Assembly (NCBI GenBank): GCA_035714745.1
Contig: DASTLR010000014.1
Coordinates: forward strand, 30,861-94,860
Direction: 5' to 3'
Origin: Minisyncoccota bacterium
GTDB lineage: Bacteria > Patescibacteriota > Minisyncoccia > Phycocordibacterales > UBA6065
DNA: 64,000 nt
The position numbers and the translations under genes were made by a program. Positions 11,291 through 38,507 of this stretch are shown here, piece by piece (position 1 is the stretch's first letter; every line of letters begins with the position of its first letter). The notes beneath the pieces were generated by a model. That model was not told the origin of the DNA, did not search any database, and worked only from the letters and a program-made list of their open reading frames with translations.

Positions 11291-11303
11291 GGGACGAAGA
11301 AAA

Positions 11304-11343
11304 GGAGGTCTTAAGACTAAGAACATAAAGTCATAAGACTAGG
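11304..11343 (+). repeat. conserved 3'-UTR motif, copy 1 (GGAGGTCYWAAGACTAAGAAYATAAAGYCWTAAGACTARG)
   Basis: Lies between the KH-gene stop and its terminator. About 37/40 identical to the 27070..27109 copy after rpoD. Confidence 0.6.
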
Positions 11344-11347
11344 AAGA

Positions 11348-11374
11348 GCCGCCTGAAGGGGCGGTTTTGTTTTT
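11348..11374 (+). terminator. intrinsic terminator
   Basis: CCGCC-TGAAG-GGCGG hairpin followed by TTTTGTTTTT. Confidence 0.65.
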
Positions 11375-11388
11375 GATATACTTTCTTT

Positions 11389-11676
11389 ATGAAACTTATC
11401 ACTCTTAATACCTGGGGCGGCAGAATAAAGCAAGGTTTCTCTGATTTCTTCAAGCGCTATCCGGGAATAGACGCCTGGCTCTTCCAAGAAGTCTATAATT
11501 TGAAAAAAGAGGAGGAATGGGTAAAGGTCGGCGGCAATCTTATGCCCGATTTTCAATTGAATGATACGATCGCTTACGTCTTCGTCTCGCCTGGCATCAA
11601 AGTGAAGGAATTCAAGGTCTTGCCGGACGTGGTGTCCGACCACGCTCCACTTTTTCTGGACTTTGAGGTAGTGTAG
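11389..11676 (+). CDS. mini endonuclease/exonuclease/phosphatase-family remnant (95 aa) in the rimM position
   Basis: N-terminal LITLNTWGG and C-terminal SDHAPLFLDF are EEP-family terminal motifs, but the ~150-aa core is missing. TATACT-N6-ATG leaderless signal at 11377..11382. Confidence 0.45.
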   Translation: MKLITLNTWGGRIKQGFSDFFKRYPGIDAWLFQEVYNLKKEEEWVKVGGNLMPDFQLNDTIAYVFVSPGIKVKEFKVLPDVVSDHAPLFLDFEVV

Positions 11677-11680
11677 GCCT

Positions 11681-12340
11681 ATGACCTTCCACGTCGTCAC
11701 GCTATTCCCGGGCGCCTTTGATTCATATCTGGGGGAGTCGATATTGAAGCGCGCCATCGAGGACAAGAAGATCCGGGTGAAGTTCTACAACCCGCGCGAT
11801 TTCGCTACGGACAAATGGGCCCGCGTCGACCAGAAGCCGTACGGCGGCGGACCGGGCATGGTCATTCAGGCCCTGCCGGTAGCTAAAGCCATCGAGAAAG
11901 CATTGAAAGGCCTGAAAGCTGGAAGCCGAAAGCCGAAAGCCTTGGTAAAGATCGTCTTCTTTAGCCCGGCAGGCACGCAGTTCGATACCGCCTATGCCAA
12001 AGCCGCCGCCAAAAAGTACGACCATATCATCTTTGTCTGCGGCCGCTACGAGGGCATCGACGCCCGCGTAAAGAAGATGTTCAGGATGGAAGACGTCTCC
12101 GTGGGCCCGTACGTCCTGACGGGCGGCGAGCTGCCGGCTATGGTCATGATGGATTCGATCTCGCGCCAGGTAGAGGGCGTGCTCGGCAATTTCGATTCCC
12201 GCGAAGAGGAGCGCATCGCCAGCCCTGATTCCTATACTCGTCCCGAAGTCGTCGAGTACAAGAAGAAGAAATACCGCGTGCCAAAGGTCCTTCTCTCGGG
12301 CAATCATAGATTGATAGACGAATGGCGATCAAACAGATAG
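11681..12340 (+). CDS. trmD: tRNA (guanine37-N1)-methyltransferase
   Basis: MTFHVVTLFPGAF...YGGGPGMV...GRYEGIDARV matches TrmD (SPOUT knot). Confidence 0.9.
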   Translation: MTFHVVTLFPGAFDSYLGESILKRAIEDKKIRVKFYNPRDFATDKWARVDQKPYGGGPGMVIQALPVAKAIEKALKGLKAGSRKPKALVKIVFFSPAGTQFDTAYAKAAAKKYDHIIFVCGRYEGIDARVKKMFRMEDVSVGPYVLTGGELPAMVMMDSISRQVEGVLGNFDSREEERIASPDSYTRPEVVEYKKKKYRVPKVLLSGNHRLIDEWRSNR

Positions 12341-13329
12341 CGGCGGGGGCGTGCGTCGTTCTGGGGGCCCTGGCGGTCCTGGGCGTGGCCCTTCGCCTCG
12401 AGCCTGGCTTGGGAATCGTCGACCATCCCGCGACCATCGTGGCGATGGGGGATATCATGCTCGACCGCACCGTGAGGACGGTCATAGACAGGCAGGGCTT
12501 CGGCTACGTCTTTGACGGCATACGCGAGATCTTTTCCGGGGCCCAGGCCGTCGTCGGCAATCTGGAGGGCGGCTTTACAGATACGCCGTCGATATCGGTC
12601 GTCGACCACACGATTCTCCATTTCACCTTTGACCCGCGCCTGGCTCCCGAGCTCCGGGCGCTGGGATTCGATACTGTCTCGCTCGCCAATAACCATGCGT
12701 ACGACTTTGGGGCCAGCGGCTTTGCTTCCACGCGGCGCTATCTGGGCCAGGCGGGCATCGCTTCGTTCGGCTCGCCTTCGAACGACGAGAACCTCTCTAT
12801 CATCCGCGACGTCGAAGGCCTGAACGTGGCCTTTGTCGGCTATCACGAATTCTACAGCCCCAGCGTGAAGCCCATCGTCGAGCGTATCGCCTCGCTGCGA
12901 GGGTTAGCAGATTTTATCATCGTCTATCCGCACTGGGGCGTGGAATACGAGAAAGGCTTCACGCCTGGGCAGCAGGAGAGAGCCCATGCCTTTATCGACG
13001 CCGGAGCCGACGCGGTCATCGGCGCCCACCCCCACGTCATCGAGCCGATCGAGATCTATCGGGGTAAGCCCATCTTCTACTCGCTCGGCAATTTCATATT
13101 TGATCAGGATTTCTCCCTCGCCACGCGCCAGGGCCTGACGCTCCGCCTGGTCGTCGGGGCCAGGGACGTCGAGTATCGCCTGGTGCCGGTGACTATGCTC
13201 CATTCGAAGCTGTCGATGCCGCCTATGCCAGAAAGGGAGGCGGTCCTGGAAATGTTAGCGAATAATTCTCTACTCTCCGGTTCGCTTAAAGATTCGATAA
13301 GGCAAGGGAAGTTCAGTCTGCCGAGATAA
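12322..13329 (+). CDS. CapA/PgsA-family metallophosphatase (poly-gamma-glutamate synthesis-like)
   Basis: HPHWGVEYE...GADAVIGAHPHVIEPIEIY...LGNFIFDQ matches CapA. N-terminal signal/TM. Overlaps the trmD end. Confidence 0.75.
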   Translation: MAIKQIAAGACVVLGALAVLGVALRLEPGLGIVDHPATIVAMGDIMLDRTVRTVIDRQGFGYVFDGIREIFSGAQAVVGNLEGGFTDTPSISVVDHTILHFTFDPRLAPELRALGFDTVSLANNHAYDFGASGFASTRRYLGQAGIASFGSPSNDENLSIIRDVEGLNVAFVGYHEFYSPSVKPIVERIASLRGLADFIIVYPHWGVEYEKGFTPGQQERAHAFIDAGADAVIGAHPHVIEPIEIYRGKPIFYSLGNFIFDQDFSLATRQGLTLRLVVGARDVEYRLVPVTMLHSKLSMPPMPEREAVLEMLANNSLLSGSLKDSIRQGKFSLPR

Positions 13330-13360
13330 AAAAGCCCGATCATGGATCGGGCTCGAGTTT
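13328..13360. terminator. bidirectional terminator between capA and minus-strand kinase gene
   Basis: AGCCCGATC-ATG-GATCGGGCT perfect 9-bp hairpin with an A-run upstream (T-run on the minus strand). Confidence 0.65.
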
Positions 13361-14300
13361 ACCCGCATGTGTCTGGCATGGTCAGGTAATAAGAGACATA
13401 CTTCCGCGCCGAGGCCAAGCTGGAGTCCTTGCGGCTGCCGTATCTGAGCGGATCCCAGCTGAAATAGCGCTCTTCGAACCAATCGATTGCGAACCTGGCC
13501 GCCAGCTCAAGCGTGATCAGCTTTGTCGCAGACAGGATATCGTCTTCGGTAAAACTCGCTCCCGCCGCCGCGCAGTAGCCTTGGCAGATGCGATGGAACC
13601 TGCGCATATTGAAGCCAGAGCCATCATTGCAGAAGCTGCGGACCATATCGGCTAGGTCGACAAGGGGATTGCCGACCATGAGCGTGTCCCAATCGATGAG
13701 CCAAACCAGGCAGGAATCGCTGTCTGAAATGCCGAAGAGGAAATTCTTCCATTTCGGGTCTCCGTGTATGAGCTGGCCTTCAGCCTGGCAGAGGCGCGCG
13801 GACGCTCGTCCTCGGAGTATATTCTCCGCGAGCCGATTGATATCGACGGCATAGGATGATGCCGCCAGCTGTTCGAGCTTTCCGAATATCGCGGCAGAGT
13901 CGTGAAAGCCGGGTATGGTCGCCGAAGGCTTCAAGGGACAAAGCCTGAGAGAGCTATGGGTCCTGCCGAGGTGCTTTGCGGCGACGATCGAATTGAAGTC
14001 GTTCGCAACGTCCATTTCTATATGGTCTATAAACTCCATGACCCTCCATCCATGACCCTGGCTCTCCCAACAGTCGAATAGCCGGGGTATCTTGACGCCG
14101 CTTTTCCTTAGATGGTCTTCCAGCCGCAGGTAATCCCCATCGGTTATCCCGCCAAGACCGGGAGCCACCTTTTGTAGGAGATACCGTCCCTTTTCCGTCT
14201 CGATCTCATATGTCTGATTTACTATCCCTCCTGAAAGCGGGGCGACCTTACTCGCGCGCCCCACAGCCCTTTCGCAGAGCATGTCGATTATTTCTTTCAT
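13359..14300 (-). CDS. phosphotransferase-family kinase (APH / choline-kinase-like fold)
   Basis: LIHGDPKWKNFLF and LIDWDTLMVGNPLVDLA are Brenner/APH catalytic motifs. Confidence 0.7.
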   Translation of the reverse strand: MKEIIDMLCERAVGRASKVAPLSGGIVNQTYEIETEKGRYLLQKVAPGLGGITDGDYLRLEDHLRKSGVKIPRLFDCWESQGHGWRVMEFIDHIEMDVANDFNSIVAAKHLGRTHSSLRLCPLKPSATIPGFHDSAAIFGKLEQLAASSYAVDINRLAENILRGRASARLCQAEGQLIHGDPKWKNFLFGISDSDSCLVWLIDWDTLMVGNPLVDLADMVRSFCNDGSGFNMRRFHRICQGYCAAAGASFTEDDILSATKLITLELAARFAIDWFEERYFSWDPLRYGSRKDSSLASARKYVSYYLTMPDTCG

Positions 14301-14407
14301 AGTGCTTCTGGTCCCTAGAATCGATCATGAGGCGGTTTAGTTTCAGCTGTCACCTTTCTTTGCGTTGCCGCATTGTAATAGCTCGACAAGCTTATATAAT
14401 GGCCTCA

Positions 14408-14983
14408 ATGAATCCCCACGCTCACAAGGCCGAATTCAGAGAGAAGCGGGACGAAGACGTCCTGGCGGCTTCTTTCAAGTATCCCTATCTCTTCGAGCTC
14501 TTGGTAGAGCGCTACGAGGATGCCTTTCTGCGCAAGGCCCGCTCGATAGTCAGGAACGACGAAGCTGCGCGCGATATCGTCCAGGATACGTTCGTAAAGA
14601 TCTATCTCTATGGCCGAAGCTTCCGCCCGGTCGAAGGCGCCCGCTTTTCGTCGTGGGCCTATCGCGTGCTCATGAACGTCTGCTTCCAGTGGTACAAGAA
14701 GCTCAAGCGGGAGCGCGAGTTCTTTTCGGCCCTGGACGATGACCTCGAGGCCGTGCTGCCCACGGACGACGGCGGCGAAAGGGACCAGCGCCTGGACCGC
14801 GACTATCTGGAATCGATGTTCTCGCGCCTGCCCGAAACCTTTGCCCGCATCCTGCGGTTGTATGTCAGCGAAGGCAAGGATTACAAGGAGATAGCGCGGA
14901 TCGAGGGAGTGACCGAGGGCGCCATAAAGACCAGGATGCACCGGGCCCGCGCCGAGCTCAAAGAGATGTCGAAAGATTATTAG
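14408..14983 (+). CDS. ECF-type RNA polymerase sigma-70 family factor
   Basis: Region 2 (ARDIVQDTFVKIY...FSSWAYRV) and region 4 HTH (YKEIARIEGVTEGAIKTRMHRAR). Start ambiguous: ATG at 14399 overlaps a TATAAT; ATG at 14408 would be leaderless. Confidence 0.75.
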   Translation: MNPHAHKAEFREKRDEDVLAASFKYPYLFELLVERYEDAFLRKARSIVRNDEAARDIVQDTFVKIYLYGRSFRPVEGARFSSWAYRVLMNVCFQWYKKLKREREFFSALDDDLEAVLPTDDGGERDQRLDRDYLESMFSRLPETFARILRLYVSEGKDYKEIARIEGVTEGAIKTRMHRARAELKEMSKDY

Positions 14984-15004
14984 CCTGATAGCTTCTATAC
15001 GTAT

Positions 15005-15316
15005 ATGACACTGATCATGGATAGGGTGATGGCGAAAGTGAGGACGATCTTCCTGCTCCGAAGGCTGGCGGTTCCTGCAATCTTCCTCGTCGTGGCCTGC
15101 GCCGTGGTGGGCAGCACCGTATCGGTCTCCAACGTCATCGCCAATATGCCGAGCCTCGTCGATATCCCGGCCATAGCGGGCTTCTACGCTCGGGCTTTCG
15201 CGCACGCGGATGTCGTGGTCAAAAGTGCGCTGGTTGCGGGAACGCTTTTCTTGCTCTTGACCCTCAAGGGCGTCGTCGACAGCGTCAGGCTCTCGACGGC
15301 TCTGCAGAAGGCCTAG
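15005..15316 (+). CDS. hypothetical membrane protein, putative anti-sigma partner
   Basis: Immediately downstream of the ECF sigma factor; two predicted TM helices. Confidence 0.4.
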   Translation: MTLIMDRVMAKVRTIFLLRRLAVPAIFLVVACAVVGSTVSVSNVIANMPSLVDIPAIAGFYARAFAHADVVVKSALVAGTLFLLLTLKGVVDSVRLSTALQKA

Positions 15317-15335
15317 GCGTTCAGGCGCTTAGGCC
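15310..15335. other. 10-bp hairpin spanning the stop codons of convergent genes
   Basis: GGCCTAGGCG-ttcagg-GCGCTTAGGCC with one G-U pair; no T-runs. Confidence 0.4.
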
Positions 15336-15667
15336 GCGCCCATTTCCAGGCCCGATATACGATCCTCGTGGTCATCGACCCGCGAGATCGTCGGTCCGAG
15401 GATATCCTCTATGCCCGAAAGCCTGTCTTCGACCCTGTCTAGGCGATTCTCGACGCTCGTCAGGCGCCCCTTGACGTCGCCCATATCAGATTTCAGCTCG
15501 TACAGCGAAAGCTCTGTCGCCTGTTTGAATTCGAGGAACTCTTTTCGCTCAAAGATCGTGTCGATCCGTTCGATGACGTCGTCAAAGCCGCGCTTGACCA
15601 TAGCGGCAAAGCTGCCAAGCTCGGCTGAGAGGTATTCTTTTGTGACGAATTCTTGCATGTCTTGCAT
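15329..15667 (-). CDS. hypothetical coiled-coil protein
   Basis: 112-aa ORF with heptad-like repeats (RLDRVEDRLSGIEDIL). TATAAT on the minus strand 11 nt upstream of the ATG. Confidence 0.4.
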   Translation of the reverse strand: MQDMQEFVTKEYLSAELGSFAAMVKRGFDDVIERIDTIFERKEFLEFKQATELSLYELKSDMGDVKGRLTSVENRLDRVEDRLSGIEDILGPTISRVDDHEDRISGLEMGAA

Positions 15668-15690
15668 GGTCGATAGGAATTATACTCCCG

Positions 15691-15717
15691 ATAAAAAGAA
15701 AGGGAGCTTGCGCAAGC
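15691..15717 (-). terminator. alkA terminator
   Basis: GCTTGCGCAAGC palindrome followed on the minus strand by TCCCTTTCTTTTTAT. Confidence 0.5.
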
Positions 15718-15763
15718 ATATAAAACGGGCGATAAAATTTTCATAAAGAAAATTCAACAACTT

Positions 15764-16396
15764 TTATCGCTTTCTGGGAATCCTGTTCTTCTTCGCGTCG
15801 GCGACCTTCCATAATATCTTGGCGGCGTAGGTCCGGTAGGGCGACCAGGCGGCGAGCACCGTATCGATCTTTTTCTGGCTCGGCAGCTTCTTCCAGCCAT
15901 AGAGGCTCATGATCTCTTTTTTCAGGACTAGATCGCCCATGGAGAACACGTCTGTGCGGCCCAAGGAGAACATCAGGATCATCTCGGCAGTCCAGGGGCC
16001 GATGCCCTTGACCCTGGTCAGCTCGATGATGACGTCGACGTCGGGCAGGGAGGGGAGCCGGGCCAGGTCGAGCTCGCCCGAGAGGACTTTGCTCGCGAGG
16101 TCGCGAATGGCGCGCGTCTTGGCTCCCGAAAGTCCGCATGAGCGCAGATCAGCGTCGGCAAGCTTCGAAATATGCTCTGGCACGACCTTGCTGTCGGGAA
16201 AAAGCGCCGCAAAGCGCTCGAATATCGTGTCCGCAGCCTTGCCCGAGAGCTGTTGGCCGATGATGGTCCAGACTATGTCGCGGAACATGTCTCCTGCGGC
16301 TACGATATCGGGAATGACGATGCCCTCCGCCAGGGTATGCAGCTTCGGGTCGTTCTTTTTGAAGTGGGCGAGGGCTTTCTGGTACACAGTGTACAT
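15764..16396 (-). CDS. alkA: DNA-3-methyladenine glycosylase II (HhH-GPD superfamily)
   Basis: ELTRVKGIGPWTAEMILMFSLGRTDVFSMGDL: HhH-GPD motif with catalytic Asp. Confidence 0.75.
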   Translation of the reverse strand: MYTVYQKALAHFKKNDPKLHTLAEGIVIPDIVAAGDMFRDIVWTIIGQQLSGKAADTIFERFAALFPDSKVVPEHISKLADADLRSCGLSGAKTRAIRDLASKVLSGELDLARLPSLPDVDVIIELTRVKGIGPWTAEMILMFSLGRTDVFSMGDLVLKKEIMSLYGWKKLPSQKKIDTVLAAWSPYRTYAAKILWKVADAKKNRIPRKR

Positions 16397-16507
16397 AATA
16401 GGCGTTTATTTGAATTTGAGAAGAATGAGCAGAAAAGATTCGAAAATATTGACAAATAAATTTGATATGTTTTACTGCACTCGGATACGTAAAAAATTGG
16501 AGGTAAC

Positions 16508-16828
16508 ATGAAGGTCATCGAAAGGGGCTTTAAACCCGTTAAATCTATTCGCCAGACCTGGTCTCGGCGCGTCACCTGCACCGGTTCTGGAAGCCAGCTG
16601 AAAGGATGCGGCGCGAAGCTGCAGGTCACTTATTCTGATCTCTACAAGACGCAGAACTGCGCCTGCGGCGAAGTGGAAGAGTTCACCACGTTCTGCTGCC
16701 CGATCTGTGGCACGGAAACTGACATCAAAGGTGTGCATCCTGGTTCTCGCGAGCTTGGAGGTAAACGGCCTTCTGAAGGAGAACGTCGCGCGCTCGCCCA
16801 GAAATGGAATAAGTCGCTGCTTCAGTAG
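16508..16828 (+). CDS. small cysteine-rich zinc-ribbon protein
   Basis: CTGSGSQLKGCGAK...CACGEVEEFTTFCCPICG cysteine pairs. GGAGG Shine-Dalgarno 4 nt upstream. Terminator at 16850..16882. Confidence 0.5.
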   Translation: MKVIERGFKPVKSIRQTWSRRVTCTGSGSQLKGCGAKLQVTYSDLYKTQNCACGEVEEFTTFCCPICGTETDIKGVHPGSRELGGKRPSEGERRALAQKWNKSLLQ

Positions 16829-16849
16829 TAAATCAGCAACTGCTTCACC

Positions 16850-16882
16850 GCCTCGATTGTAGTTAAGCGATCGAGGCTTTTT
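16850..16882 (+). terminator. intrinsic terminator
   Basis: GCCTCGAT...ATCGAGGC hairpin followed by T5. Immediately followed by TTGACT (candidate rpoB promoter -35). Confidence 0.65.
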
Positions 16883-17019
16883 CTTGACTTATCCCCATAT
16901 CCGAGTACACTTATCTCCACTTCGAGCAAGATTGTGTTATTGGGGAAACACGAAGTAAATTAAGGGGATTTTCATCCTTCTCTTGCCAAAGATCTCGTAA
17001 CAGCGGCCAAAACCCGAAA

Positions 17020-17046
17020 GCCTCTCCGTCCATGGAGGCCTTTTTG
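17020..17046 (+). promoter_or_regulatory. attenuator-like hairpin in the 316-nt rpoB leader
   Basis: GCCTC...GAGGC stem followed by CTTTTTG, inside the leader upstream of rpoB. Confidence 0.35.
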
Positions 17047-17144
17047 CGTTTTAGGCGTCTGTATGCGGTTTTTGTCAAATTAGGCGGAAAAGCCCCTCGC
17101 CGCGGCGGTCTTTTAATAACGTCGGTCTTATAAACCTACTGAAC

Positions 17145-20100
17145 ATGATAACTAGGCAGCAGAAGTACTTCGGGCGCTTCAAGGAGGCGCTCGCGGATAT
17201 CCCGGATCTCGTCCAAGCGCAGACGGATTCGTTCAAGTGGCTCGTGGAGAAGGGCCTGGCCCAGATCTTCCAGGAGTTCTCGCCGATCAAGGACTATTCG
17301 GACAAGAAGTTCGAGCTCTCGTTCACGGGCTTCGAGCTCGCCGAGCCGAAATACGACGAGCATTATGCGAAGGAGAATAAGCTCTCCTTCGAGGCTCCCC
17401 TCAAGGTCCGCATCAAGCTCAAGAACAAGATGTTCAATTCGGAGAAGGAGCAGGAGATCTTCCTGGCCGACTTCCCGCTGATGACGTCCCACGGCACGTT
17501 CATCATCAACGGCATCGAGCGCGTCATCGTCCCCCAGCTCGCGCGCTCGTTCGGCGTCTTCTTCACCTCTGACGAGATCAAGGGCAAGACCGTATTCGGC
17601 GCCAAGGTCATCCCAGCCCGCGGCGTCTGGCTCGAGATCGAGACCGACACCGACGGCACCCTCTACGCCCGCATCGACCGCAAGCGAAAGTTCATGGTCA
17701 CGGCCCTCCTGCGCGTGCTCGGCGCCGACACCGACGAGAAGATCCTCTCGTACTTCAAGGGCGACGAGGTTGCCCAGAAGGTCGTGGCGGCATCCCTGGC
17801 CAAGGACACGGCTAAGACCGTCTCTGACGCATACATCGAGATCCACAAGCGCCTCCGCGACGGCGACCTGGCCACGGCGGACAACGCCAAGGAGTTCATC
17901 TCCGGCCTCTTCCACAAGGACCGCTACGACCTCTCGGACGTCGGGCGATTCCGCTTCAACAAGCGCTTTGGGAAGCCGATGGACGACAAGGCTCTGGAGC
18001 GCAAGACCATCGACGCGACTGACCTCGCTACCATCATCGGCAACATCATCCATCTGAACAACAAGCTGGACGCCGTCGAGGACGACATCGACCACCTGGG
18101 ATCGCGCCGCGTGCGCTACGTGGGCGAGCTCATGCAGCAGAAGCTCCGCGTCGGCCTCTCGCAGATGAAGAGGAACATCCAGGACAGGATGTCCACCATC
18201 GAGCCTGACACCACCCAACCCTTGACCTTCGTCTCGCCGCGACCGCTCCAGGCCCGCCTCAAGGAATTCTTCACCACCAACCAGCTCTCGCAGTTCATGC
18301 AGCAGGAGAATATCCTGACCGAGCTCGAGCATCTACGAACGCTCTCGGCCCTCGGCCCGGGCGGTCTTACTCGTGAAAGGGCTGGCTTCGAGGTCCGCGA
18401 CGTGCACCCATCGCACTACGGACGACTCTGCCCGATCCACACCCCTGAAGGTCCGAACATCGGACTCATCCTCCGTCTCTCTACGTACGCCCGTCTCAAC
18501 GATTTCGGCATGATCGAGACGCCGTACGCAAAGGTTAAGAACGGCAAGGTCACCAAGGAGATCGTCTATCTGAACGCCCTGGAGGAGGAGTCGCACCGCA
18601 TCGCCCACGCGGCCACTGCCTACGACAAGTCGGGGACCATCACCGAAGAGGTCGTCGAGGTCCGCTTTAACGGCTCGCCGTCGCTCTGCAAGCCGACCGA
18701 GGTCGACTTCATCGACGTCTCGACGAACCAGGCTTTCTCGATCGCCACGAACATGATCCCGTTCCTGAACCACGACGACGCTAACCGAGCGCTCATGGGT
18801 TCGAACATGCAGAAGCAGGCCACGCCGTGCATCATCCCCGAAGCCCCGCTCGTCGCCACCGGCATCGAAGCAAAGGCGGCTGAGTACACCGGCCGCATCG
18901 TTTTGGCCCCGGAGGACGGTACGATCAGCGCCGTAGACGCCAACAAGGTCGTCTTCAAGAACGCAAAGGGCAAGGAGACGACGTACAAGCTGGTCGCCTT
19001 CGAGAGGACGAACGGCTTTACCGCATACCACCAGCGACCAGTCGTCAGCCTGGGCGAAAAGGTCAAGAAGGGCCAGGTCCTCGTCGACGCCTCATCGTCC
19101 GACGGCGGTCAGATCGCCCTCGGCCAGAACATGCTCGTAGCCTTCATGTCGTGGTCGGGCGCCAACTACGAGGACGCCATCATCATCAGCGAGCGCGTCG
19201 TCAAGAACTCCAAATTCACCTCTATCCATATCGAGGAGTTCGTCGTGAACGTCCGCGACACCAAGCTCGGCCCGGAGGTCACCACCCACGACATCCCTAA
19301 CGTCGGCGAGGGCAAGCTCAGGAACCTGGACGAGGACGGCATCATCCGCATCGGCGCCGAGGTCCGCTCGGGCGACATCCTGGTGGGCAAGATCACTCCG
19401 AAGGGCGAGACCCAGCTCACGCCTGAGGAGCGCCTTCTCCGCTCGATCTTCGGCGAGAAAGCTCGCGACGTGAAGGACACCTCGAAGCGCATGGAAGGCG
19501 GCAAGCGCGGCCGCGTCATCTCGGTCAAGGTCTTTAGCCGCGAGAAGGGCGACAAGCTCGAGTCCGGCATCATCAAGCGCATCCACGTCGAGGTGGCGCA
19601 GCTCCGCACGGTCTCGGTGGGCGACAAGCTTGCTGGCCGCCACGGCAACAAGGGAGTCATCTCGCGCATCCTGCCGGAGGAGGATATGCCATACATGGCG
19701 GACGGCACCCCTGTGGACGTCATCCTCACCCCTCTCGGCGTCCCATCGCGCATGAACCTCGGCCAGATCCTCGAGCTCCACCTGGGCATGGCCGCTCACA
19801 CCCTGAACTACCAGGCCATCGTGCCGCCGTTCGCCGGCGCCACCTCGGCCGAGATCAAGGAGGAGCTCGTCAAGGCGGGCCTTCCCGAGAACGGCAAGGT
19901 GCCTCTCTATGACGGTCGTACCGGGGACAAGTTCCAGCAGGACATCTCCATCGGCTACATGTACATCCTGAAGCTCCACCACATGGTCGAGGACAAGATC
20001 CACATGCGCTCGATCGGTCCGTACTCGCTCATCACCCAGCAGCCTCTCGGAGGCAAGGCCCAGGGCGGAGGACAGCGCTTCGGAGAGATGGAAGTCTGGG

Positions 20101-20324
20101 CCCTCCTCGGACACGGAGTGGCTCACACCTTGCGCGAGATCCTGACCATCAAGTCCGACGACATCACCGGCCGCTCGGCAGCCTTCGACTCTATCGTCAA
20201 GGGCGAGAGGCTCCAGCCGCCGAACATCCCTGCTTCCTTCAACGTGCTGCTTAACAGCCTCAGGGGCCTCGCGCTCGACGTCGAACTGAGGAAAGAGGGC
20301 AAGGATATCAAGAAGGCCAAGTAG
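17145..20324 (+). CDS. rpoB: DNA-directed RNA polymerase subunit beta (1059 aa, compact)
   Basis: Similarity throughout, including FIINGIERVIV, GRHGNKGV, and the NMQRQAVP-like region. Confidence 0.95.
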   Translation: MITRQQKYFGRFKEALADIPDLVQAQTDSFKWLVEKGLAQIFQEFSPIKDYSDKKFELSFTGFELAEPKYDEHYAKENKLSFEAPLKVRIKLKNKMFNSEKEQEIFLADFPLMTSHGTFIINGIERVIVPQLARSFGVFFTSDEIKGKTVFGAKVIPARGVWLEIETDTDGTLYARIDRKRKFMVTALLRVLGADTDEKILSYFKGDEVAQKVVAASLAKDTAKTVSDAYIEIHKRLRDGDLATADNAKEFISGLFHKDRYDLSDVGRFRFNKRFGKPMDDKALERKTIDATDLATIIGNIIHLNNKLDAVEDDIDHLGSRRVRYVGELMQQKLRVGLSQMKRNIQDRMSTIEPDTTQPLTFVSPRPLQARLKEFFTTNQLSQFMQQENILTELEHLRTLSALGPGGLTRERAGFEVRDVHPSHYGRLCPIHTPEGPNIGLILRLSTYARLNDFGMIETPYAKVKNGKVTKEIVYLNALEEESHRIAHAATAYDKSGTITEEVVEVRFNGSPSLCKPTEVDFIDVSTNQAFSIATNMIPFLNHDDANRALMGSNMQKQATPCIIPEAPLVATGIEAKAAEYTGRIVLAPEDGTISAVDANKVVFKNAKGKETTYKLVAFERTNGFTAYHQRPVVSLGEKVKKGQVLVDASSSDGGQIALGQNMLVAFMSWSGANYEDAIIISERVVKNSKFTSIHIEEFVVNVRDTKLGPEVTTHDIPNVGEGKLRNLDEDGIIRIGAEVRSGDILVGKITPKGETQLTPEERLLRSIFGEKARDVKDTSKRMEGGKRGRVISVKVFSREKGDKLESGIIKRIHVEVAQLRTVSVGDKLAGRHGNKGVISRILPEEDMPYMADGTPVDVILTPLGVPSRMNLGQILELHLGMAAHTLNYQAIVPPFAGATSAEIKEELVKAGLPENGKVPLYDGRTGDKFQQDISIGYMYILKLHHMVEDKIHMRSIGPYSLITQQPLGGKAQGGGQRFGEMEVWALLGHGVAHTLREILTIKSDDITGRSAAFDSIVKGERLQPPNIPASFNVLLNSLRGLALDVELRKEGKDIKKAK

Positions 20325-20331
20325 ATTCTTG

Positions 20332-20356
20332 ATTCTAACTTCTACATTCTAACTTC
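20332..20356 (+). repeat. intercistronic motif ATTCTAACTTCTA(C)ATTCT, copy 1 (rpoB-rpoC junction)
   Basis: Pyrimidine-rich motif with an internal TCTAACTTC direct repeat, just upstream of the rpoC ATG. A second copy lies at 55189..55207 upstream of umuC. Confidence 0.5.
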
Positions 20357-20363
20357 AATTACC

Positions 20364-23300
20364 ATGGCATACACACCACGAAACAAGGCCTCGGACGTCA
20401 TCGACTTCGACGCGGTCGCCCTGCGCGTCGCCTCGCCTGAGCGCATCAAGGAATGGTCGTTCGGAGAGGTCACCAAGCCTGAGACCATCAACTACCGAAC
20501 CCAGCGATCCGAGAAGAACGGCCTCTTCGACGAGAAGATCTTCGGCCCGGACAAGGACTACGAATGCTACTGCGGAAAGTACCGCGGCATCCGCTACAAG
20601 GGAATCGTCTGCGAGAAGTGCGGGGTCGAGATCACCCGATCGATCGTCCGCCGCGAGCGCATGGGCCACATCGAGCTGGCCTCGCCGGTCTCGCACATCT
20701 GGTTCCTTCGCTCCATGCCGTCGCGCCTGGGCCTCATCCTCGGCATGACCACCGCCGACCTGGAGAAGGTCATCTACTTCGCCGGCTACATCGTCACCTC
20801 GGTGAACGAAGCCGCTCGCGCCGAGATCATGCGCGACCTGGAATCCGAGTACAAGGCAAAGGTGAAGGGCGCCACCGACGAGAAGACCAAGGAGGCCCTG
20901 AAATCCATGTATACGGCTGCCAAGAAGGAGATCGACGGCATCCAGGAGGGTACGGTCCTCGACGAGATCGAATATGGCAAGTACTCGATGAAGTACTCGA
21001 CCCTCTTCGAGGCGGGCATCGGAGCCGAGGCTATCTATAATATCTGTAAGGCCATCGACCTGAAAAAGCTCGAGGCCCGCGTCGCCGCCGACCTCCAGAA
21101 GGCCAATTCCCTTGAGAAGGACAAGATGAATCGCAGGCTCTCGGTCATTCGCTCGATGATCAAGTCGCAGATCCGCCCCGAGTGGATGTTCCTGACCCGC
21201 ATCCCGGTCATCCCGCCGGCCCTCCGACCGATGGTTCCATTGGACGGCGGCCGCTATGCCACCTCGGACGTCAACGACCTGTACCGACGCGTCATCAACC
21301 GAAACAATCGCCTGATGAAGCTCAAGGAGATCATGGCGCCTGACGTCATCCTGCGAAACGAGAAGCGCATCCTCCAGGAGGCCGTCGACGCCCTCATCGA
21401 CAACTCTATCCGACACGGCAACTCCACGACTGCCGCCGGCTCGCTCGCCTCGAAGCGCGCGCTCAAGTCCCTGGCCGACAACCTCAAGGGCAAGAGGGGA
21501 CTCCTGCGCGGCAACCTCCTGGGCAAGCGCGTCGACTACTCGGGACGATCCGTGATCGTCGTCGGCCCCGAGCTCGCCCTTGACCAGTGCGGACTGCCGA
21601 AGCACATGGCCCTCGAGCTCTTCAAGCCGTTCGTCATCCACGAGCTCCTCAGGCGCGAGCTGGCCTATAACATCCGCGGCGCCTCTCGACTGATCGAAGA
21701 CGGCATCCCCGAGGTCTGGGCCATCCTCGAAGAGGTCATCGACGGCAAGTACGTGCTCCTGAACCGAGCCCCTACGCTCCACCGCCTCGGCATCCAGGCC
21801 TTCCGACCTATCCTTATCGAGGGTAACGCTATCCAGGTCCACCCACTGGTCTGCTCGGCCTTCAACGCAGACTTCGACGGAGACCAGATGGCCGTCCACG
21901 TGCCACTCTCTCCAGAAGCCCAGAAAGAGGCAAAGGAGATCATGGCCTCGGACAAGAACATCCTCAAGCCTGGCTCGGGCGACCCGACGCTCACCAACAA
22001 GATGCTCGACATCATCCTGGGCGTCTATTGGATGACCAAGCTCGTCAAGGAAGACGGCGTGAACGAGAAGGGCGAGGGCAAGATCTTCGAATCCCCGAAC
22101 GCCGCGGTGCTCGCCTCTGACTTCGGCCAGGTATCCAAGCGCGTGGCCATCAAGGTCCTCGCTCCCGACCCTGCCAAGAATCCGAAGTATGCCGAGTACA
22201 AGGGCGGCGTCTTCGAGACGACCATCGGGCGCATCCTCTTTAACGAGGTCCTGCCCGAGGGCTATCCGTTCATCAACAAGGAGATGGACCGCAAGGCCAT
22301 GTCCGCCGTCATGGACGACCTCTTGGTCAAGTACGGCGTAGACCAGGTCCCCGCCATCCTCGACAGGATCAAGAAGTTCGGCTTCAAGTACACCACCTAC
22401 TCGGGCATCACCTGGGGACTGGACGACGTGCGCACGCCAAAGGGCAAGGACGCCGTCATCGCCAAGGCCAAGCAGGAGTCAGACATGGTCACCGAGCAGT
22501 TCAACGACGGCCTGCTCTCGGACGACGAGCGCCTGCGCAAGAACGTCGAGATCTGGCACAAGGCTAAATCCGACGTCGAGAAGCTCGTCCCTGAGGGCCT
22601 CGAGATGAACGTCCTGGACATGGTCAAGTCCGGAGCCCGAGGCTCCATCGGCCACATCACCCAGATGGCCGGCATGAAGGGACTGATCACCAACACGGCC
22701 GGAGAGACCATCGAGTTCCCGATCATCTCGGGCATGAAGGACGGCCTCACCCCGATCGAGTACTTCATCACCACCCACGGCGCCCGCAAGGGTCTGACCG
22801 ACACGGCCCTGAACACCGCTCGCGCCGGATATCTGACCCGCCGACTCTTCGACGTGGCCCAGGACGTCATGGTCACCGAGGAGGACTGCGGCACAAAGGA
22901 TTCCATCGTCATCAGGAAGGAGAGCGCCTCGGGCATCGAGGTCTCGATCGCCAAGAACATCCGCGGCCGCGTCTTGGCCGCTGACATCGCCGGCGCCGAC
23001 GGCAAGGTCCTCTTCAAGAAGGGCCACTTGCTCTCCAAGCAGGACGCCAACCTCATCGAGGGCTCTGGCGCCACGGAGATCAGGGTCCGCTCGCCGCTCG
23101 CCTGCAAGACCCTGCATGGCGTCTGCCAGCAGTGCTACGGCATCGACCTGGGCAAGAACCACCTCATCGACATCGGCGAGGCGGTAGGAACGGTGGCCGC
23201 TCAGGCCATCGGCGAGCCCGGAACCCAGCTGACCATGCGTACCTTCCACGCCGGAGGCACCGCCTCGGTCGGAGGAGACATCACCGCCGGCCTGCCGCGC

Positions 23301-24068
23301 GTCGAGGAAGTCTTCGAAAAGCGCAGGCCAAAGAACCCGGCGGTCATCGCCACGGTCTCGGGCACCGTCTCGTCGGTCAAGGACCTGGGCAAGGAGAAGG
23401 TCATCGCCGTCATCCCTGACCTGGAGGACAAGGGCAAGGCCAAGAAGGGCGCCGCCGAGATCGAATATACCTTCTCGTCCCGCCGCATGGCCCTGGTCAA
23501 GATGGGCGACAAGGTGACGAAGGGCCAATTCCTCACTGACGGCTCGGCCGACATCGACGAGGTCTTCGAGCTGGCCGGCAAGGAGCAGGCCATGGACTAC
23601 ATCATCCGCGAGATCGGCAAGATCTACGAGCTCCAGGGAGAGACCGTGTCCCGAAAGCACATCGAGATCATCGTCAAGCAGATGTTCTCCCGACGCCGCA
23701 TCGTCGACGCGGGCGAGACCCGGTTCTCCATCGACGACGTCACCGACGCCTACGACCTGGAGATCGAGAATTCCCGCGTAAAGGCAGAGGGCAAGGCTCC
23801 GGCGGTAGGCGAATCGGCGGTCATGGGCATCACCGAGGTATCGCTCTCGCGCCAGTCGTTCCTCTCGGCCGCATCCTTCCAGCACACCACCAGGATCTTC
23901 ATCTCGGCGGCCATCCGCGGCACCGAGGACAAGCTGACCGGCCTCAAGGAGAACGTCATCATCGGACGGCTGATCCCGGCAGGCACCGGCTACGCGGGCA
24001 GCAAGAAGAAGGCCATGATCGACGAGGTCACCGCGAGCCTGAAGGACAGCGCGGGATCGGAGTTGTAG
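20364..24068 (+). CDS. rpoC: DNA-directed RNA polymerase subunit beta'
   Basis: Zinc-binding CYCGKYRGIRYKGIVCEKCG, NADFDGDQMAVHVP catalytic motif, and full-length similarity. Confidence 0.95.
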   Translation: MAYTPRNKASDVIDFDAVALRVASPERIKEWSFGEVTKPETINYRTQRSEKNGLFDEKIFGPDKDYECYCGKYRGIRYKGIVCEKCGVEITRSIVRRERMGHIELASPVSHIWFLRSMPSRLGLILGMTTADLEKVIYFAGYIVTSVNEAARAEIMRDLESEYKAKVKGATDEKTKEALKSMYTAAKKEIDGIQEGTVLDEIEYGKYSMKYSTLFEAGIGAEAIYNICKAIDLKKLEARVAADLQKANSLEKDKMNRRLSVIRSMIKSQIRPEWMFLTRIPVIPPALRPMVPLDGGRYATSDVNDLYRRVINRNNRLMKLKEIMAPDVILRNEKRILQEAVDALIDNSIRHGNSTTAAGSLASKRALKSLADNLKGKRGLLRGNLLGKRVDYSGRSVIVVGPELALDQCGLPKHMALELFKPFVIHELLRRELAYNIRGASRLIEDGIPEVWAILEEVIDGKYVLLNRAPTLHRLGIQAFRPILIEGNAIQVHPLVCSAFNADFDGDQMAVHVPLSPEAQKEAKEIMASDKNILKPGSGDPTLTNKMLDIILGVYWMTKLVKEDGVNEKGEGKIFESPNAAVLASDFGQVSKRVAIKVLAPDPAKNPKYAEYKGGVFETTIGRILFNEVLPEGYPFINKEMDRKAMSAVMDDLLVKYGVDQVPAILDRIKKFGFKYTTYSGITWGLDDVRTPKGKDAVIAKAKQESDMVTEQFNDGLLSDDERLRKNVEIWHKAKSDVEKLVPEGLEMNVLDMVKSGARGSIGHITQMAGMKGLITNTAGETIEFPIISGMKDGLTPIEYFITTHGARKGLTDTALNTARAGYLTRRLFDVAQDVMVTEEDCGTKDSIVIRKESASGIEVSIAKNIRGRVLAADIAGADGKVLFKKGHLLSKQDANLIEGSGATEIRVRSPLACKTLHGVCQQCYGIDLGKNHLIDIGEAVGTVAAQAIGEPGTQLTMRTFHAGGTASVGGDITAGLPRVEEVFEKRRPKNPAVIATVSGTVSSVKDLGKEKVIAVIPDLEDKGKAKKGAAEIEYTFSSRRMALVKMGDKVTKGQFLTDGSADIDEVFELAGKEQAMDYIIREIGKIYELQGETVSRKHIEIIVKQMFSRRRIVDAGETRFSIDDVTDAYDLEIENSRVKAEGKAPAVGESAVMGITEVSLSRQSFLSAASFQHTTRIFISAAIRGTEDKLTGLKENVIIGRLIPAGTGYAGSKKKAMIDEVTASLKDSAGSEL

Positions 24069-24078
24069 AATCTACTCG

Positions 24079-25851
24079 ATGTCTACCCATGTTCAGGAGA
24101 TCAAAGAGAAACTGGACATCGCGACGGTCGTAGGCTCCTATATCAAGCTCGACAAGTCGGGAGCCAACTACAAGGCGCGCTGCCCCTTCCACAACGAGAA
24201 GACGCCGTCTTTCTACGTGTCTCCCGAGCGCGCCTCCTTCTACTGCTTCGGCTGCCAGGCAAAGGGCGACATCTTCACCTTCGTCGAGAAGTTCGAGGGC
24301 CTCGACTTCATGGGCGCCCTCAAGGTCCTGGCCGACAGGGCAGGGGTCAAGCTCGACCGCTCGAATGCCGGCAAAGACACCCGCCGCGAGCTCCTCTTCG
24401 ACATCATGGAGAGGGCAGCGCAGTTCTACGAGGAGGCGCTTAGGGCGGATGCTCGGGCCATGGAATACGTCCTGGGTCGCGGCCTCACGGCAAAGACCGT
24501 CGACGAGTTCCGCATAGGCTTCGCCCCGGCCGAATGGCGCGCTCTGCGCAATCACTTGAAGGCCAAGGGCTACCGCGACGAGGACGTGGCCGCTGTCGGT
24601 CTCATAAAAAGGACAGACAAGCCGGGCGGACCCGGCAACGACCCGTACTACGACGCCTTCCGCGGTCGGGTGACGTTCCCGATCGGCGACACCTCGGGAA
24701 GGATCATCGCCTTTACCGGCCGCACATTGGACGAGGATGCCAATCCGCCCAAATACCTGAACAGCCCCGAGACCGTGCTCTTTAGCAAGTCCAAGGCCCT
24801 CTACGGCCTGGACAAGGCCAAGAGCGATATCAGGAAGCGCGACTACTCGATCCTGGTGGAAGGGCAGATGGACCTGGTCATGTCGCACCAGGCGGGCTAT
24901 ACCAACACGGTGGCCGCCTCCGGCACGGCCTTCACCGAGGACGCCGGCATGGACTCGGCCTTCGGCCTCCTCACAAGGCTCTCGGACAATATCGTCCTGG
25001 CCTTCGACTCGGACTCAGCGGGCCAAAAGGCGGTCAGGCGCATCGTCCCGGCCATCTCGCTCGGCATGAACGTCAAGATCGTCGACATCAAGGGCGGCAA
25101 GGACCCTGCCGACATCATCAAGGCCGACCCAAAGGACTGGGCCAAGGCCCTGGAGTCAAAGAAGGACTTCGTCGAGTATCTGGTGGACGCTCTGGTGGAT
25201 TCGAAGGCCAAGCCCGCCGATGTTGCCAAGCAGGTCAAGCAAGACATCTTCCCGTACTTGCGGGCTATCCCTGACGACACGCCGCGCTTCCAGGCCATAA
25301 AGAAGGTGGCCGACCGCCTGGCGATCAGCGAGGACGCGCTCTGGAGGGACCTGCAGGAATATGTGAGGGTGCAGAAGATACAGGGGGCACAAGGAACATC
25401 GGAGACACAGGGATCACAGGGGACACAGAGAATACCAGAGAAGAGGAAGGTGGATAGGCTGGAGTCGATCGAGAGGAAGGTGTTGGGACTGCTCTATTCG
25501 GCCGACTATTTCAAGGGAGACGAGGGGAAGAGGGAGGAACTGAAGAAAGTCGTCGGGGAAGAGCGGTCCAGGGCGTTCGAAGCGCTCTCGGCGGACGATA
25601 TCGGCGAGCTGACCTTGGAGGCCGAGATCACCTACGGAGACGGTCTGGATGCGGCAAAGGAGTGGAAGGTCCTTATCCTCGGGCTGGAAGAGGAATACGC
25701 CAAGGCCAGGCTGGCGTCGGCCATGTCCGAGCTCCACAAAGCGGAAAAGGCGAACGCCTCCACGGCCCAGGTTATGGCAGAGATCAACGCCCTGTCAAAG
25801 AGGATCCACGAGATAAAGAGGGAGGCGGAGAAGATGCAAAGTTTGATATAA
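24079..25851 (+). CDS. dnaG: DNA primase
   Basis: Zinc finger [30 protein letters not shown]; TOPRIM (EGQMDLV...DSDSAGQKA). Low-complexity Q/G linker before the C-terminal domain. Confidence 0.9.
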
Positions 25852-25871
25852 TCCAAAGCACGCGAAACCAT

Positions 25872-27065
25872 ATGGCACACAAGCAGAAAAAGCCCGGAAT
25901 AAAGGCCTCAAAGAAGGCGCCGAACAAGGCGCCAAAGAAGGCCAAGGCAAAGCTCGGCCCAAAGGCCCAAAAGGCCAAGGAAAAAGCCCGCGAGTCCCTG
26001 CGCAAGGCTGACCGCCTGGTGGTAAAGGGCAAGGAGCGCGGCTTCATCACCTACGACGAGATCCTCAAGGAATTCCCGACCATCGAGGACGACATCATGT
26101 TCCTGGACGACCTCTACAAGAAGCTCTCGGCCGCGGGCGTCGACGTCCTGGAGTCGGGTGGCATGCTCGACCTGGAGCCTCAGCAGAAGGACGCGGGCAA
26201 GAAATATACCTTCGGCCGCTCGTCCGAGTCCTCGTACGACTCTATCCAGATGTACTTGAAGGAGATCGGCCAGTATCCGTTGGTCTCGGCCGCCATGGAA
26301 AAGGAGCTGGCTAAGCGCATCGAGTCCGGCGACGAGGAGGCCAAGGGCCTCCTGGCCAAGGCAAATCTCCGTCTGGTGGTCTCGATCGCCAAGAAATACG
26401 TCGGCCGCAGCGCCGACCTGACCCTCCTCGACCTCATCCAGGAGGGCAACCTGGGCCTCTTCAAGGCCGTCGACAAGTTCGACTGGACCAAGGGCTACAA
26501 GTTCTCGACCTACGCCACCTGGTGGATCCGCCAGGCTATCACCCGCGCCTTGGCCGACCAGTCTCGCACCATCCGCGTGCCGGTCCACATGGTCGAGACC
26601 ATCGCCAAGTACAAGCAGGTCGTCCGCAGGCTCTCGCAGGACCTGGGCCGCGACCCCCTGCCCGACGAGATCGCGACCGAGATGGGTTTGGAGGTAGAGA
26701 AGGTCTATCAGATCGAGAAGATCGACCAGGATACCGTGTCCCTGGAATCGCCCGTAGGCGACGACGGCGATGACGGCAAGTCGACCCTGGGGGATTTCCT
26801 CTCGGACGACAAGATCCTCTCGCCCGACCAGGAGTCCTCGCGCCGCATCCTGGCCGACCAGGTCAAGAACATCCTGGGAGACCTCTCGCCAAAGGAGCGC
26901 AAGATCCTGGAGATGCGCCATGGCCTGAACGACGGCATTACCCACACGCTTGAGGAGGTGGGCCGCGAGTTCGGCGTCACCCGCGAGCGCATCCGTCAGA
27001 TCGAAGCCAAGGCCCACGAGAAGATTCGCCAGCACGAGAGGATAAACCAGCTGAAGAACTATTAG
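25872..27065 (+). CDS. rpoD: RNA polymerase primary sigma factor (sigma-70)
   Basis: Regions 2-4 present: [54 protein letters not shown] at 25872 within ORF 25662..27065. K-rich N-terminus. Confidence 0.9.
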
Positions 27066-27069
27066 GGGA

Positions 27070-27109
27070 GGAGGTCCAAGACTAAGAATATAAAGCCTTA
27101 AGACTAAGG
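27070..27109 (+). repeat. conserved 3'-UTR motif, copy 2
   Basis: GGAGGTCCAAGACTAAGAATATAAAGCCTTAAGACTAAGG between the rpoD stop and the terminator hairpin. Paralogous to 11304..11343. Confidence 0.6.
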
Positions 27110-27121
27110 GCATGAAAAAGT

Positions 27122-27147
27122 CGCGGTACGTGGGGTACCGCGGCTTT
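27122..27147. terminator. bidirectional terminator (rpoD and minus-strand membrane gene)
   Basis: CGCGGTAC-GTGGG-GTACCGCG perfect 8-bp hairpin; T5 on the minus strand, TTT on the plus strand. Confidence 0.6.
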
Positions 27148-27165
27148 GCGTGGGTCGGCGCCGTT

Positions 27166-27666: not shown

Positions 27667-27734
27667 GTTGTTTTAGGGACCTGCCTTCAAATTACGCTTT
27701 TTGGACGTTTTGTCAATTTTCAGCTATCGTAAAA

Positions 27735-36105: not shown

Positions 36106-36124
36106 AGAATTTATTTACTATTAT

Positions 36125-37003: not shown

Positions 37004-37010
37004 TTTATAT

Positions 37011-37706: not shown

Positions 37707-37711
37707 ATATC

Positions 37712-38369: not shown

Positions 38370-38507
38370 TAAAGAATATCATCAAGGTCCTGCAAAGACC
38401 ACTAAAATTATTACTTTTATGTTCCATAGGTTCGCCAAACAATACTTCAATATGTTAAACTCCCTCATACCGACCCCTAGCCCCCATGCTCGGGCGTCGT
38501 GCCGTAT

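Follow-up and report, generated by a model that had tools for sequence, protein, structure and literature searches.

A 40-nt non-coding element that stands twice in a 64-kb stretch of bacterial DNA (hereafter the window) belongs to a small, young, lineage-specific repeat family, and a further copy lies just outside that stretch, in the 5' leader of the threonyl-tRNA synthetase gene thrS. The window corresponds approximately to positions 30,987–94,986 of the 100,880-bp scaffold BAND20-1_SAMN13481442_METAG-scaffold_57, part of a metagenome-assembled genome (MAG) of Candidatus Paceibacterota (Patescibacteria / Candidate Phyla Radiation). Copies 1 and 2 follow the genes for a KH-domain protein and for the primary sigma-70 factor RpoD, respectively. 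The family is of known kinds, namely short dispersed intergenic repeats and antisense sequence embedded in 3' untranslated regions (3' UTRs). Our tentatively favoured reading is that both 3'-UTR copies arose recently by duplication and that RNA from them would be antisense to the thrS translation-initiation region; that they are neutral stray copies is nearly as likely.

Both 40-mers (11304–11343 and 27070–27109) stand exactly as an earlier note on this DNA had quoted them, each between a stop codon and a GC-rich hairpin that begins 4–12 nt further on, and the element is real, non-random and repeated. The 18-mer AAGACTAAGAAYATAAAG, searched with up to 3 mismatches, occurred only at these two sites in 64 kb; shuffled sequence would yield 0.01 matches, and none of 100 shuffles gave two or more. 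The recurrence is far beyond chance. The identity of the two 40-mers, previously put at about 92%, was 35/41 aligned columns (85%) or 35/39 ungapped columns, and the similarity begins at the stop codon itself (TAGGGGA in both). The internal direct repeat described earlier was also recovered, as AAGACTAAG / TAAGACTA(A)G, with a start-to-start spacing of 22 nt in every copy. In contigs of two sibling samples (L006, L007) the region around copy 2 was 99.9–100% identical, and copy 2 itself identical, so the motif is not an assembly artefact. The overall GC content is 59%, third codon positions in genes reach 80–90%, and intergenic DNA is AT-rich. Because the gap from stop codon to terminator is 3–25 nt for nearly all other window genes, the KH and rpoD 3' regions are conspicuously long for such a compact genome.

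The earlier note had described the element as present twice. Contigs encoding window proteins added 9.2 kb on the upstream side and 5.9 kb on the downstream side, and in the resulting 79 kb a profile of the two copies detected a third (E = 2e-4) on the same scaffold, 3.9 kb upstream of the window, at L052 5275–5305 (window −3912 to −3882); blastn-short against copy 2 gave E = 3e-6. The core common to the three copies is 31 nt long, AAGACTAAGAWYATAAAGNCNTAAGACTARG, and comprises two ~10-nt direct repeats TAAGACTAAG that are ~12 nt apart. Pairwise core identities were 26–28/31 and the invariant positions of the three-way alignment were AAGACTAAGA..ATAAAG.C.TAAGACTA.G, with both 9–10-nt repeats nearly intact in all copies and most of the variation in the spacer. 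The GGAGGTC block is common to copies 1 and 2 only and falls outside this core. All three copies share the same chromosomal orientation, and each lies 4–12 nt from a GC-rich hairpin on the same side. Their starts (−3912, 11313 and 27078) are almost evenly spaced in one direction, by 15,225 and 15,765 bp; no further copy was found at the next evenly spaced scaffold positions, and the spacing is probably a coincidence.

Copy 3 sits in the 5' leader of the minus-strand thrS gene and is not downstream of any plus-strand open reading frame (ORF). Its core ends 7 nt upstream of the thrS ATG (L052 5267–5265), a start that is secure because dozens of homologues have the N-terminus of threonyl-tRNA synthetase (ThrRS), MSS(S)L(P/E)xIRHS, in common. 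Read on the thrS strand, the order is a promoter-like TTGACC-18 nt-TATGAT, a leader of ~160 nt, a terminator-like hairpin ending GCGCTTTTTC, then CTTAGTCTTACGCCTTTATAATCTTAGTCTT, TATCTTC and ATG. The leader holds the reverse complement of the motif, CUUAGUCUUACGCCUUUAUAAUCUUAGUCUU, between the terminator-like hairpin and the AUG, in a G-poor stretch without a Shine-Dalgarno site. A minus-strand promoter inside the motif, which would bypass the thrS leader terminator, was considered and rejected: a −10-like hexamer, TATNNT, can be read in the reverse complement of ATAAAG, yet no acceptable −35 box accompanies it.

By eye, the thrS leader (L052 5268–5480, minus strand; approximately window −3919 to −3707) bears a tentative likeness to an atypical T-box. 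It contains a 6-bp hairpin with the 7-nt loop CUACCAA (the Thr codon ACC plus A), a T-box core GGUGGAACCGCG, and the terminator-like hairpin with its U run. The Rfam T-box model found no match in this leader even at E up to 10, perhaps on account of an ultrashort Stem I. Against the whole window Rfam returned two tRNAs only, and around copy 3 nothing credible was obtained at E up to 10.

The relatives speak against the conservation from which the earlier note had reasoned to a shared cis-acting function of the 3' UTR. The motif is absent 3' of the KH gene in 5 loci (L035–L039) from three related organisms, two of these loci duplicating a third, and absent 3' of rpoD in 6 loci (L001–L004, L033, L034) from five related organisms, L003 duplicating L002. 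The six rpoD loci encode RpoD proteins that are 88–94% identical, and their terminators directly follow a TAA stop. An nhmmer search with the two-copy profile also found no copy in any of the relatives' loci. Lack of conservation in relatives, which the earlier note had itself named as contrary to its proposal, is therefore what was observed, and copy 3 lies in a 5' leader of opposite transcriptional sense. The closest relative, L035 (KH protein 96% identical; ~84% nucleotide identity over 11.9 kb), is the most informative. Its KH gene ends CTC-TAA-GAGAAAA, that is, the stop, 7 nt and then a terminator orthologous to that of the window. Aligned to it, the window displays a clean 50-nt insertion (~11292–11341) bounded by TAGG...TAGG, with the stop changed from TAA to TAG; the corresponding bounds of copy 2 are TAGG/TAAGG.

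Wider searches used one exact pattern per collection, which diverged copies would escape. In 185,579 species genomes the pattern AAGACTAAGAAN{8,12}TAAGACTA had 24 matches, approximately the estimated chance number and none of them a homologue; these fell in coding sequences or in (TAAGAC/TAAGAA)n hexamer arrays of unrelated phyla. The pattern GGAGGTCN{1,2}AAGACTAAGAA had 11 matches in JGI metagenomes, all unrelated, and a single exact pattern gave 1 unrelated match in the viral collection IMG/VR. Long intergenic (TAAGAC/TAAGAA)n arrays were seen in Polaromonas, a cyanobacterium, a Cryomorphaceae bacterium and an unclassified MAG (L011, L016, L021, L026, L027); they are like the repeat unit of the motif in sequence only. 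By these comparisons the element is lineage-restricted, and at least copy 1 is young.

Comparisons with relatives also bear on which copy came first. A ThrRS homologue that is 86% identical, P0242, is encoded on the same contig as L039, in a species with ~77% nucleotide identity. Because its start was called too far upstream, its first 31 residues are a translation of its leader (...AVARALYFLSFTLSSLSLNLYNL-MSS / ...CAVARALYFLSFTLSSLSLNLYNL-MSS). Frame 1 of the thrS leader on the window scaffold (AVARALFLSLTPL / ...RAVARALFLSLTPL, each closed by a stop) is collinear with this leader peptide. By the match AVARAL-(Y)F-LS-(F/L)-T, CTTAGTYTTAC would come straight after the T run of the terminator in both species, and LSLNLYNL is what CTTAGTCTTAAYCTTTATAATCTT would encode. 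The thrS-leader copy is thus probably ancestral and older than the split from the species of P0242, as judged from the leader peptide of P0242 and not from its DNA. The length of the thrS leader varies among relatives, two mis-called homologues (P0248, P0251) implying merely ~21 nt between T run and ATG. For copy 1, the comparison with L035 indicates a derived state that would have arisen after that closer split. The ancestral-type KH 3' end in L035 (CTCTAAGAGAAAAGCCGCC / TAAGAGAAAAGCCGCC) is similar to what flanks the thrS copy on the right (GACTAAGAAAAAGCGCC / TAAGAAAAAGCGCC) and closes in TAAG, as does the repeat unit. Such a resemblance would offer microhomology for gene conversion or template switching, and a microhomology-mediated origin of the window copies is probable. 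The flanks are purine-rich and the exact junctions ambiguous.

On the reading that we tentatively favour, the oldest family member would be part of the thrS 5' leader, and later ectopic copying would have put two copies into the short stop–terminator gaps of the KH gene and rpoD, oriented so that the 3'-UTR RNA of both would be antisense to the thrS initiation region. Pairing would then join the thrS leader, over about −45 to +17, to the 3' ends of these abundant housekeeping mRNAs or to processed fragments that retain the terminator hairpin. This would block the ribosome-loading site or create a substrate for RNase III, and ThrRS synthesis would be tuned in this way; a gene for RNase III is present in the window at 3590–4294. 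Copies 1 and 2 are located upstream of their hairpins, from which we infer that they are transcribed with their host genes. In RNAduplex predictions against this thrS segment, the KH and rpoD 3' UTRs gave −49.9 and −53.4 kcal/mol, respectively, compared with −30 ± 4.4 kcal/mol for dinucleotide shuffles. Among ~56 initiation regions thrS was by far the best, the next real candidate reaching −33 to −36 kcal/mol. Essentially no structure is predicted for copy 2 or for the thrS leader segment, both of which would hence be accessible.

The thrS segment is G-poor and has no Shine-Dalgarno site, like other internal leaders of this genome and its relatives, and is therefore plausibly a ribosome-loading site. 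A Shine-Dalgarno-like tetramer precedes the start in only ~5/34 confident genes, and many genes of this genome look leaderless or carry G-poor leaders. Many also have a TATACT-like −10 box merely 6–10 nt before the start codon (e.g., window 44680–44704, 57480–57505 and 795–816), which suggests that leaderless mRNAs are widespread here.

Several observations weigh against an antisense function. The 3'-UTR copies are conserved in no relative examined and hence carry no evolutionary sign of selection, and the family is known from only three copies, in 79 kb of scaffold of one metagenome-assembled genome. Where the 3'-UTR copies depart from the thrS copy (core positions 11, 12, 19 and 21), they produce mismatches and not compensated pairs. 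Since complementarity is automatic for any inverted copy, the duplex energies alone are no argument for function. The likeness of the left flanks to thrS codons 2–6 is weak, a 9-nt match in copy 2 having p ~0.02 and that in copy 1 not being significant. In one other species (L032, sample DRR673955) the region after the rpoD TAG stop shares only its first 8–9 nt, TAGGGGAG, with copy 2; beyond these the similarity was not significant, 144 of 1000 shuffles scoring as well. The TAGGGGAG start of the rpoD 3' region is thus probably older than the repeat. Nor is the L032 rpoD 3' region complementary to the inferred thrS leader of P0242; theirs is the one other species in which both loci were glimpsed. 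The rpoD 3' region of L032 (3957–4014) is itself at least 55 nt long and A-rich, with the 8-nt direct repeat AAGAACAC occurring twice, 19 nt apart, before the contig ends ahead of a terminator.

A second explanation assumes the same origin but no function, and we regard it as nearly as likely. Ectopic gene conversion or template switching between similar sequences of the form 'TAAG + A-tract + GC hairpin' would have left the 3'-UTR copies behind as a neutral or slightly deleterious by-product. They would be tolerated because few places in this compact genome other than the stop–terminator gap could take up 45–50 extra bases harmlessly. Absence of the motif at the orthologous sites of all relatives examined, the uncompensated mismatches to the thrS copy and the TAGG/TAGG and TAGG/TAAGG insertion bounds are all consistent with this, and the microhomology between the L035 KH 3' end and the thrS flank fits mis-templated repair. 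Small intergenic repeats without known function are also common in bacteria. What a neutral origin explains less readily is that two separate insertions are both sense to a highly expressed housekeeping gene and both upstream of its terminator, in a genome of the reduced type that tends to lose neutral DNA. The 9–10-nt repeats have also stayed nearly intact, with variation mostly in the spacer, and an abundant RNA that is near-perfectly complementary, over 28–31 nt, to where an essential gene starts would probably not be without phenotypic effect.

An extension of the antisense reading, which we regard as improbable, would join it to the T-box likeness of the thrS leader. In such a joint circuit, repeat-containing thrS mRNA would be made only with uncharged tRNA-Thr and would base-pair to the rpoD and rpsP-KH transcripts at their 3' ends, where RNase III could cut away the protective terminator hairpins. 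If true, expression of sigma-70 and of ribosome-associated genes would be tied to aminoacylation status through a stringent-response-like mRNA–mRNA circuit, in a reduced bacterium of the Candidate Phyla Radiation, and the circuit would have been born recently by inverted duplication of a translation-initiation region.

The regular architecture of the core could instead mark a site for a dimeric sequence-specific protein, with two TAAGACTAAG half-sites one 22-bp period apart; we consider this unlikely. Such a protein could bind double-stranded DNA irrespective of orientation, for example as a roadblock or nucleoid-type factor beside terminators, or could bind the plus-strand RNA. All three copies keep the 10-12-10 direct-repeat geometry, with no change in the half-sites or the central ATAAAG but variation at adjoining spacer positions (two of them with three different bases), and the shared orientation and the 4–12 bp to a GC hairpin would suit a factor of this kind. 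The geometry is also reminiscent of LytTR-type operators, in which two 9–10-bp direct repeats with a 12-bp spacer lie just upstream of the −35 box of the regulated promoter. All copies have this 9–10-bp repeat and 12-bp spacer arrangement, but the promoter context is absent at copies 2 and 3: copy 2 lies between convergent genes with no plausible promoter, and copy 3 abuts a start codon. Against a protein site also stand the lack of conservation in relatives and of an identified candidate binding protein, and an RNA-binding version has against it that the thrS transcript presents the complement and not the motif.

Position within the window alone might have argued for a conserved cis-acting 3'-UTR element (a stabiliser or ribosome-holding site) or for a three-frame translational backstop before the terminator, an explanation that we judge very unlikely. 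Both window copies share the order of stop codon, motif and hairpin, both have GGAGGTC, and all copies contain plus-strand stops in three frames. Copy 3, however, is not behind a plus-strand ORF, and the element is not conserved in relatives. The copies have no shared fold, with predictions of −11 kcal/mol for copy 1 (z = −3.8) and −4.5 kcal/mol with a different structure for copy 2 (z = +0.16, or about +0.2); a structured RNA motif was rejected on this ground and for want of an Rfam match. A three-frame stop cassette was likewise set aside, since we estimate that stops in three frames arise by chance in about 1 in 3 AT-rich stretches of 35 nt and copy 3 follows no ORF. The GGAGG, earlier described as a Shine-Dalgarno-like block, lies outside the shared core, has no start codon at 5–10 nt and would be of a type that is rare in this genome; neither a Shine-Dalgarno nor a decoy ribosome site was therefore retained. 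A small ORF in the motif was rejected as well, because no start codon follows the GGAGG and the ORFs beginning within the motif on the minus strand only shadow the KH gene and rpoD.

The least probable of the explanations considered is a miniature transposable element (a miniature inverted-repeat transposable element (MITE), REP or similar) moved by a transposase encoded elsewhere. The copies are dispersed with unrelated flanks, and a TA or TA(R)G duplication around copies 1 and 2 is formally compatible with a TA target-site duplication. The apparent duplication is ambiguous, however, as the flanking TA or TAGG coincides with the TAAG of the repeat unit itself. Only 31–45 nt are shared, without terminal inverted repeats or a palindrome; the 79 kb contain 3 copies, two large collections gave no match (one exact pattern each), and the thrS leader includes one copy as an integral and apparently ancestral component. 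Of the options listed in the earlier note, a miniature repeat element and a small-RNA target come closest to what was found; the former does not hold in the sense of a classical MITE, given that the ends GGGGA... and ...TAAGAC are not mutually complementary. A REP/BIME palindromic repeat was excluded, there being neither an imperfect palindrome nor a conserved stem-loop. The copy number is far too low for a DNA uptake sequence, Chi or a Ter-type motif.

Coordinates and annotations for the two window copies and their surroundings are collected in Table 1. The KH protein matched P0121 at 100% and contains the Pfam domain PF13083 (KH_KhpA-B); its C-terminus, ...AMADLNL, is the same in relatives, where the stop codon is TAA. 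RpoD matched P0001 at 100% and contains the Sigma70 r1–r4 Pfam domains. The earlier claim of a terminator after each copy stands for the KH gene, where a canonical plus-strand terminator begins 4 nt after the end of copy 1. Behind rpoD, 12 nt after the end of copy 2, the hairpin satisfies terminator criteria on the minus strand only and is a weak terminator on the plus strand, making it at best a bidirectional terminator for rpoD. A plus-strand ORF at 27112–27732 was dismissed as spurious because it overlaps, in antisense, the membrane-like gene 27166–27666.

Table 1 Features at the two window copies of the repeat (window coordinates).
Feature	Position	Strand	Details and basis
KH-domain (KhpA/YlqC-like) gene, 104 aa, host of copy 1	10976..11290	+	Stop TAG 11288–11290; translation
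Copy 1, KH 3' UTR	11291..11343	+	Shared 31-nt core 11313–11343 = AAGACTAAGAACATAAAGTCATAAGACTAGG
KH intrinsic terminator	11345..11378	+	Hairpin GCCGCC-TGAAG-GGGCGG (11345–11368) plus T run TTTTGTTTTT; terminator scan, fold, alignment
rpoD, primary sigma-70 factor, 397 aa, host of copy 2	25872..27065	+	Stop TAG 27063–27065
Copy 2, rpoD 3' region	27066..27109	+	Core 27078–27108 = AAGACTAAGAATATAAAGCCTTAAGACTAAG
GC-rich hairpin common to convergent genes	27122..27142	.	Terminator scan and fold; minus-strand tail ACTTTTTCAT, plus-strand tail CTTTGCGTGGG
Convergent hydrophobic membrane-like ORF, 166 aa	27166..27666	-	Terminator is the 27122–27142 hairpin; called as gene in public record

The gene that follows copy 1 (window 11389–11676) encodes a 95-aa remnant of an exonuclease/endonuclease/phosphatase-family protein that has 251 aa in the closest relative, L035. 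Its third-codon-position GC is lower (0.59), and it looks like an internal deletion or a pseudogene.

Other small repeats occur nearby. Two G-free leaders without a Shine-Dalgarno site (window 20325–20363 and 55175–55213) share ATTCTAACTTCTA (19 nt, 95% identity); they are located in the rpoB–rpoC gap, where the unit is present twice, and upstream of a DinB-like gene at 55214. The rpoB–rpoC spacers of relatives differ in sequence yet are equally G-poor and CTAA-rich. A second small repeat family, AAGTTATTGAATTTTCTTTATC ... TCTAGATGGC ... GCATATACTTAT, was seen at L052 ~62–160, L052 5530–5620 and window 15700–15770 (minus strand), upstream of three paralogous small genes for coiled-coil-like proteins (...AMAKIDERFEQLDRKMMDGF...), and is probably a duplicated promoter or 5' region. 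The leader of a small ORF at 58811 (window 58772–58810) contains a tandem 14-nt repeat, CGACTTACAACCGA / CGACTAACAACCGA, and its end, ACAACGATATG, resembles ACAACCGATATG upstream of the gene at 49485. Directly after uvrB, a 2.4-kb low-GC island (window 36074–38476) has a third-codon-position GC of ~0.3, compared with 0.8–0.9 elsewhere; its ORFs include one with a weak HEPN match, and it was probably acquired horizontally.

Among known systems, REP/BIME, MIRU, STAR and Correia/MITE elements are the small dispersed intergenic repeats of bacteria. The family resembles them in its size of tens of bases, its place in transcribed intergenic space near stops or terminators and its lineage specificity, and differs in lacking a palindrome or terminal inverted repeats, in its very few copies and two direct 10-mers, and in having one copy in a gene leader. 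Plant microRNA genes can originate by inverted duplication of their target genes. The likeness lies in an inverted copy of the target with extensive complementarity from birth; kingdom and machinery are different, and the copy here is embedded in an existing mRNA 3' UTR without a fold-back precursor.

Regulatory RNAs derived from mRNA 3' ends include CpxQ, SdhX, NarS and UhpU, mRNA–mRNA regulation by 3' UTRs is known, and 3' UTRs have been likened to a playground where new regulators are born (PMC9438474, PMC12704781). Like such RNAs, the repeat lies between a stop codon and the host terminator hairpin, is predicted to be single-stranded (copy 2) and is predicted to be complementary to the initiation region of another mRNA. 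Unlike their 7–12-nt seeds, its complementarity spans ~30 nt, is nearly perfect and is not conserved between species. No sigma-70-like promoter from which a separate RNA could start was predicted within the KH or rpoD 3' ends. The closest precedent for functionalising a 3' UTR by repeat insertion is the vigR 3' UTR of S. aureus, which was expanded by STAR repeat insertions and supplies sequence that pairs with another mRNA (bioRxiv 10.1101/2023.05.16.541063). STAR repeats are GC-rich, numerous and unrelated in sequence to the present family, in which the inserted sequence mirrors the leader of its target. The TIGR arrays of TIGR-Tas systems, also found in the Candidate Phyla Radiation, consist of 8–12-nt repeats with 9–12-nt spacers followed by a rho-independent terminator; they have two alternating repeats (UG...CCA), usually 5–15 units with variable spacers, and an adjacent Nop-domain Tas gene (PMC12045711). 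Short spaced repeats before a terminator in the same bacterial radiation invite the comparison, but a TIGR array was rejected: a single repeat occurs twice, without a UG start or CCA end, copies differ little in their spacer, and next to them lie the KH gene, the exonuclease/endonuclease/phosphatase fragment, rpoD, the membrane ORF and thrS.

If the copies are neutral, the near-identity of two non-coding stretches within one compact genome would not be evidence of conservation, and a look 10 kb past the window together with one close relative sufficed to overturn that conclusion here. If the antisense reading is true, the KH and rpoD 3' ends would represent a very young trans-acting regulatory 3' UTR caught near its birth, with donor and copies still recognisable. 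It would come from a radiation in which post-transcriptional regulation is almost unexplored, and would mean that mis-templated copying beside terminators can create regulators.

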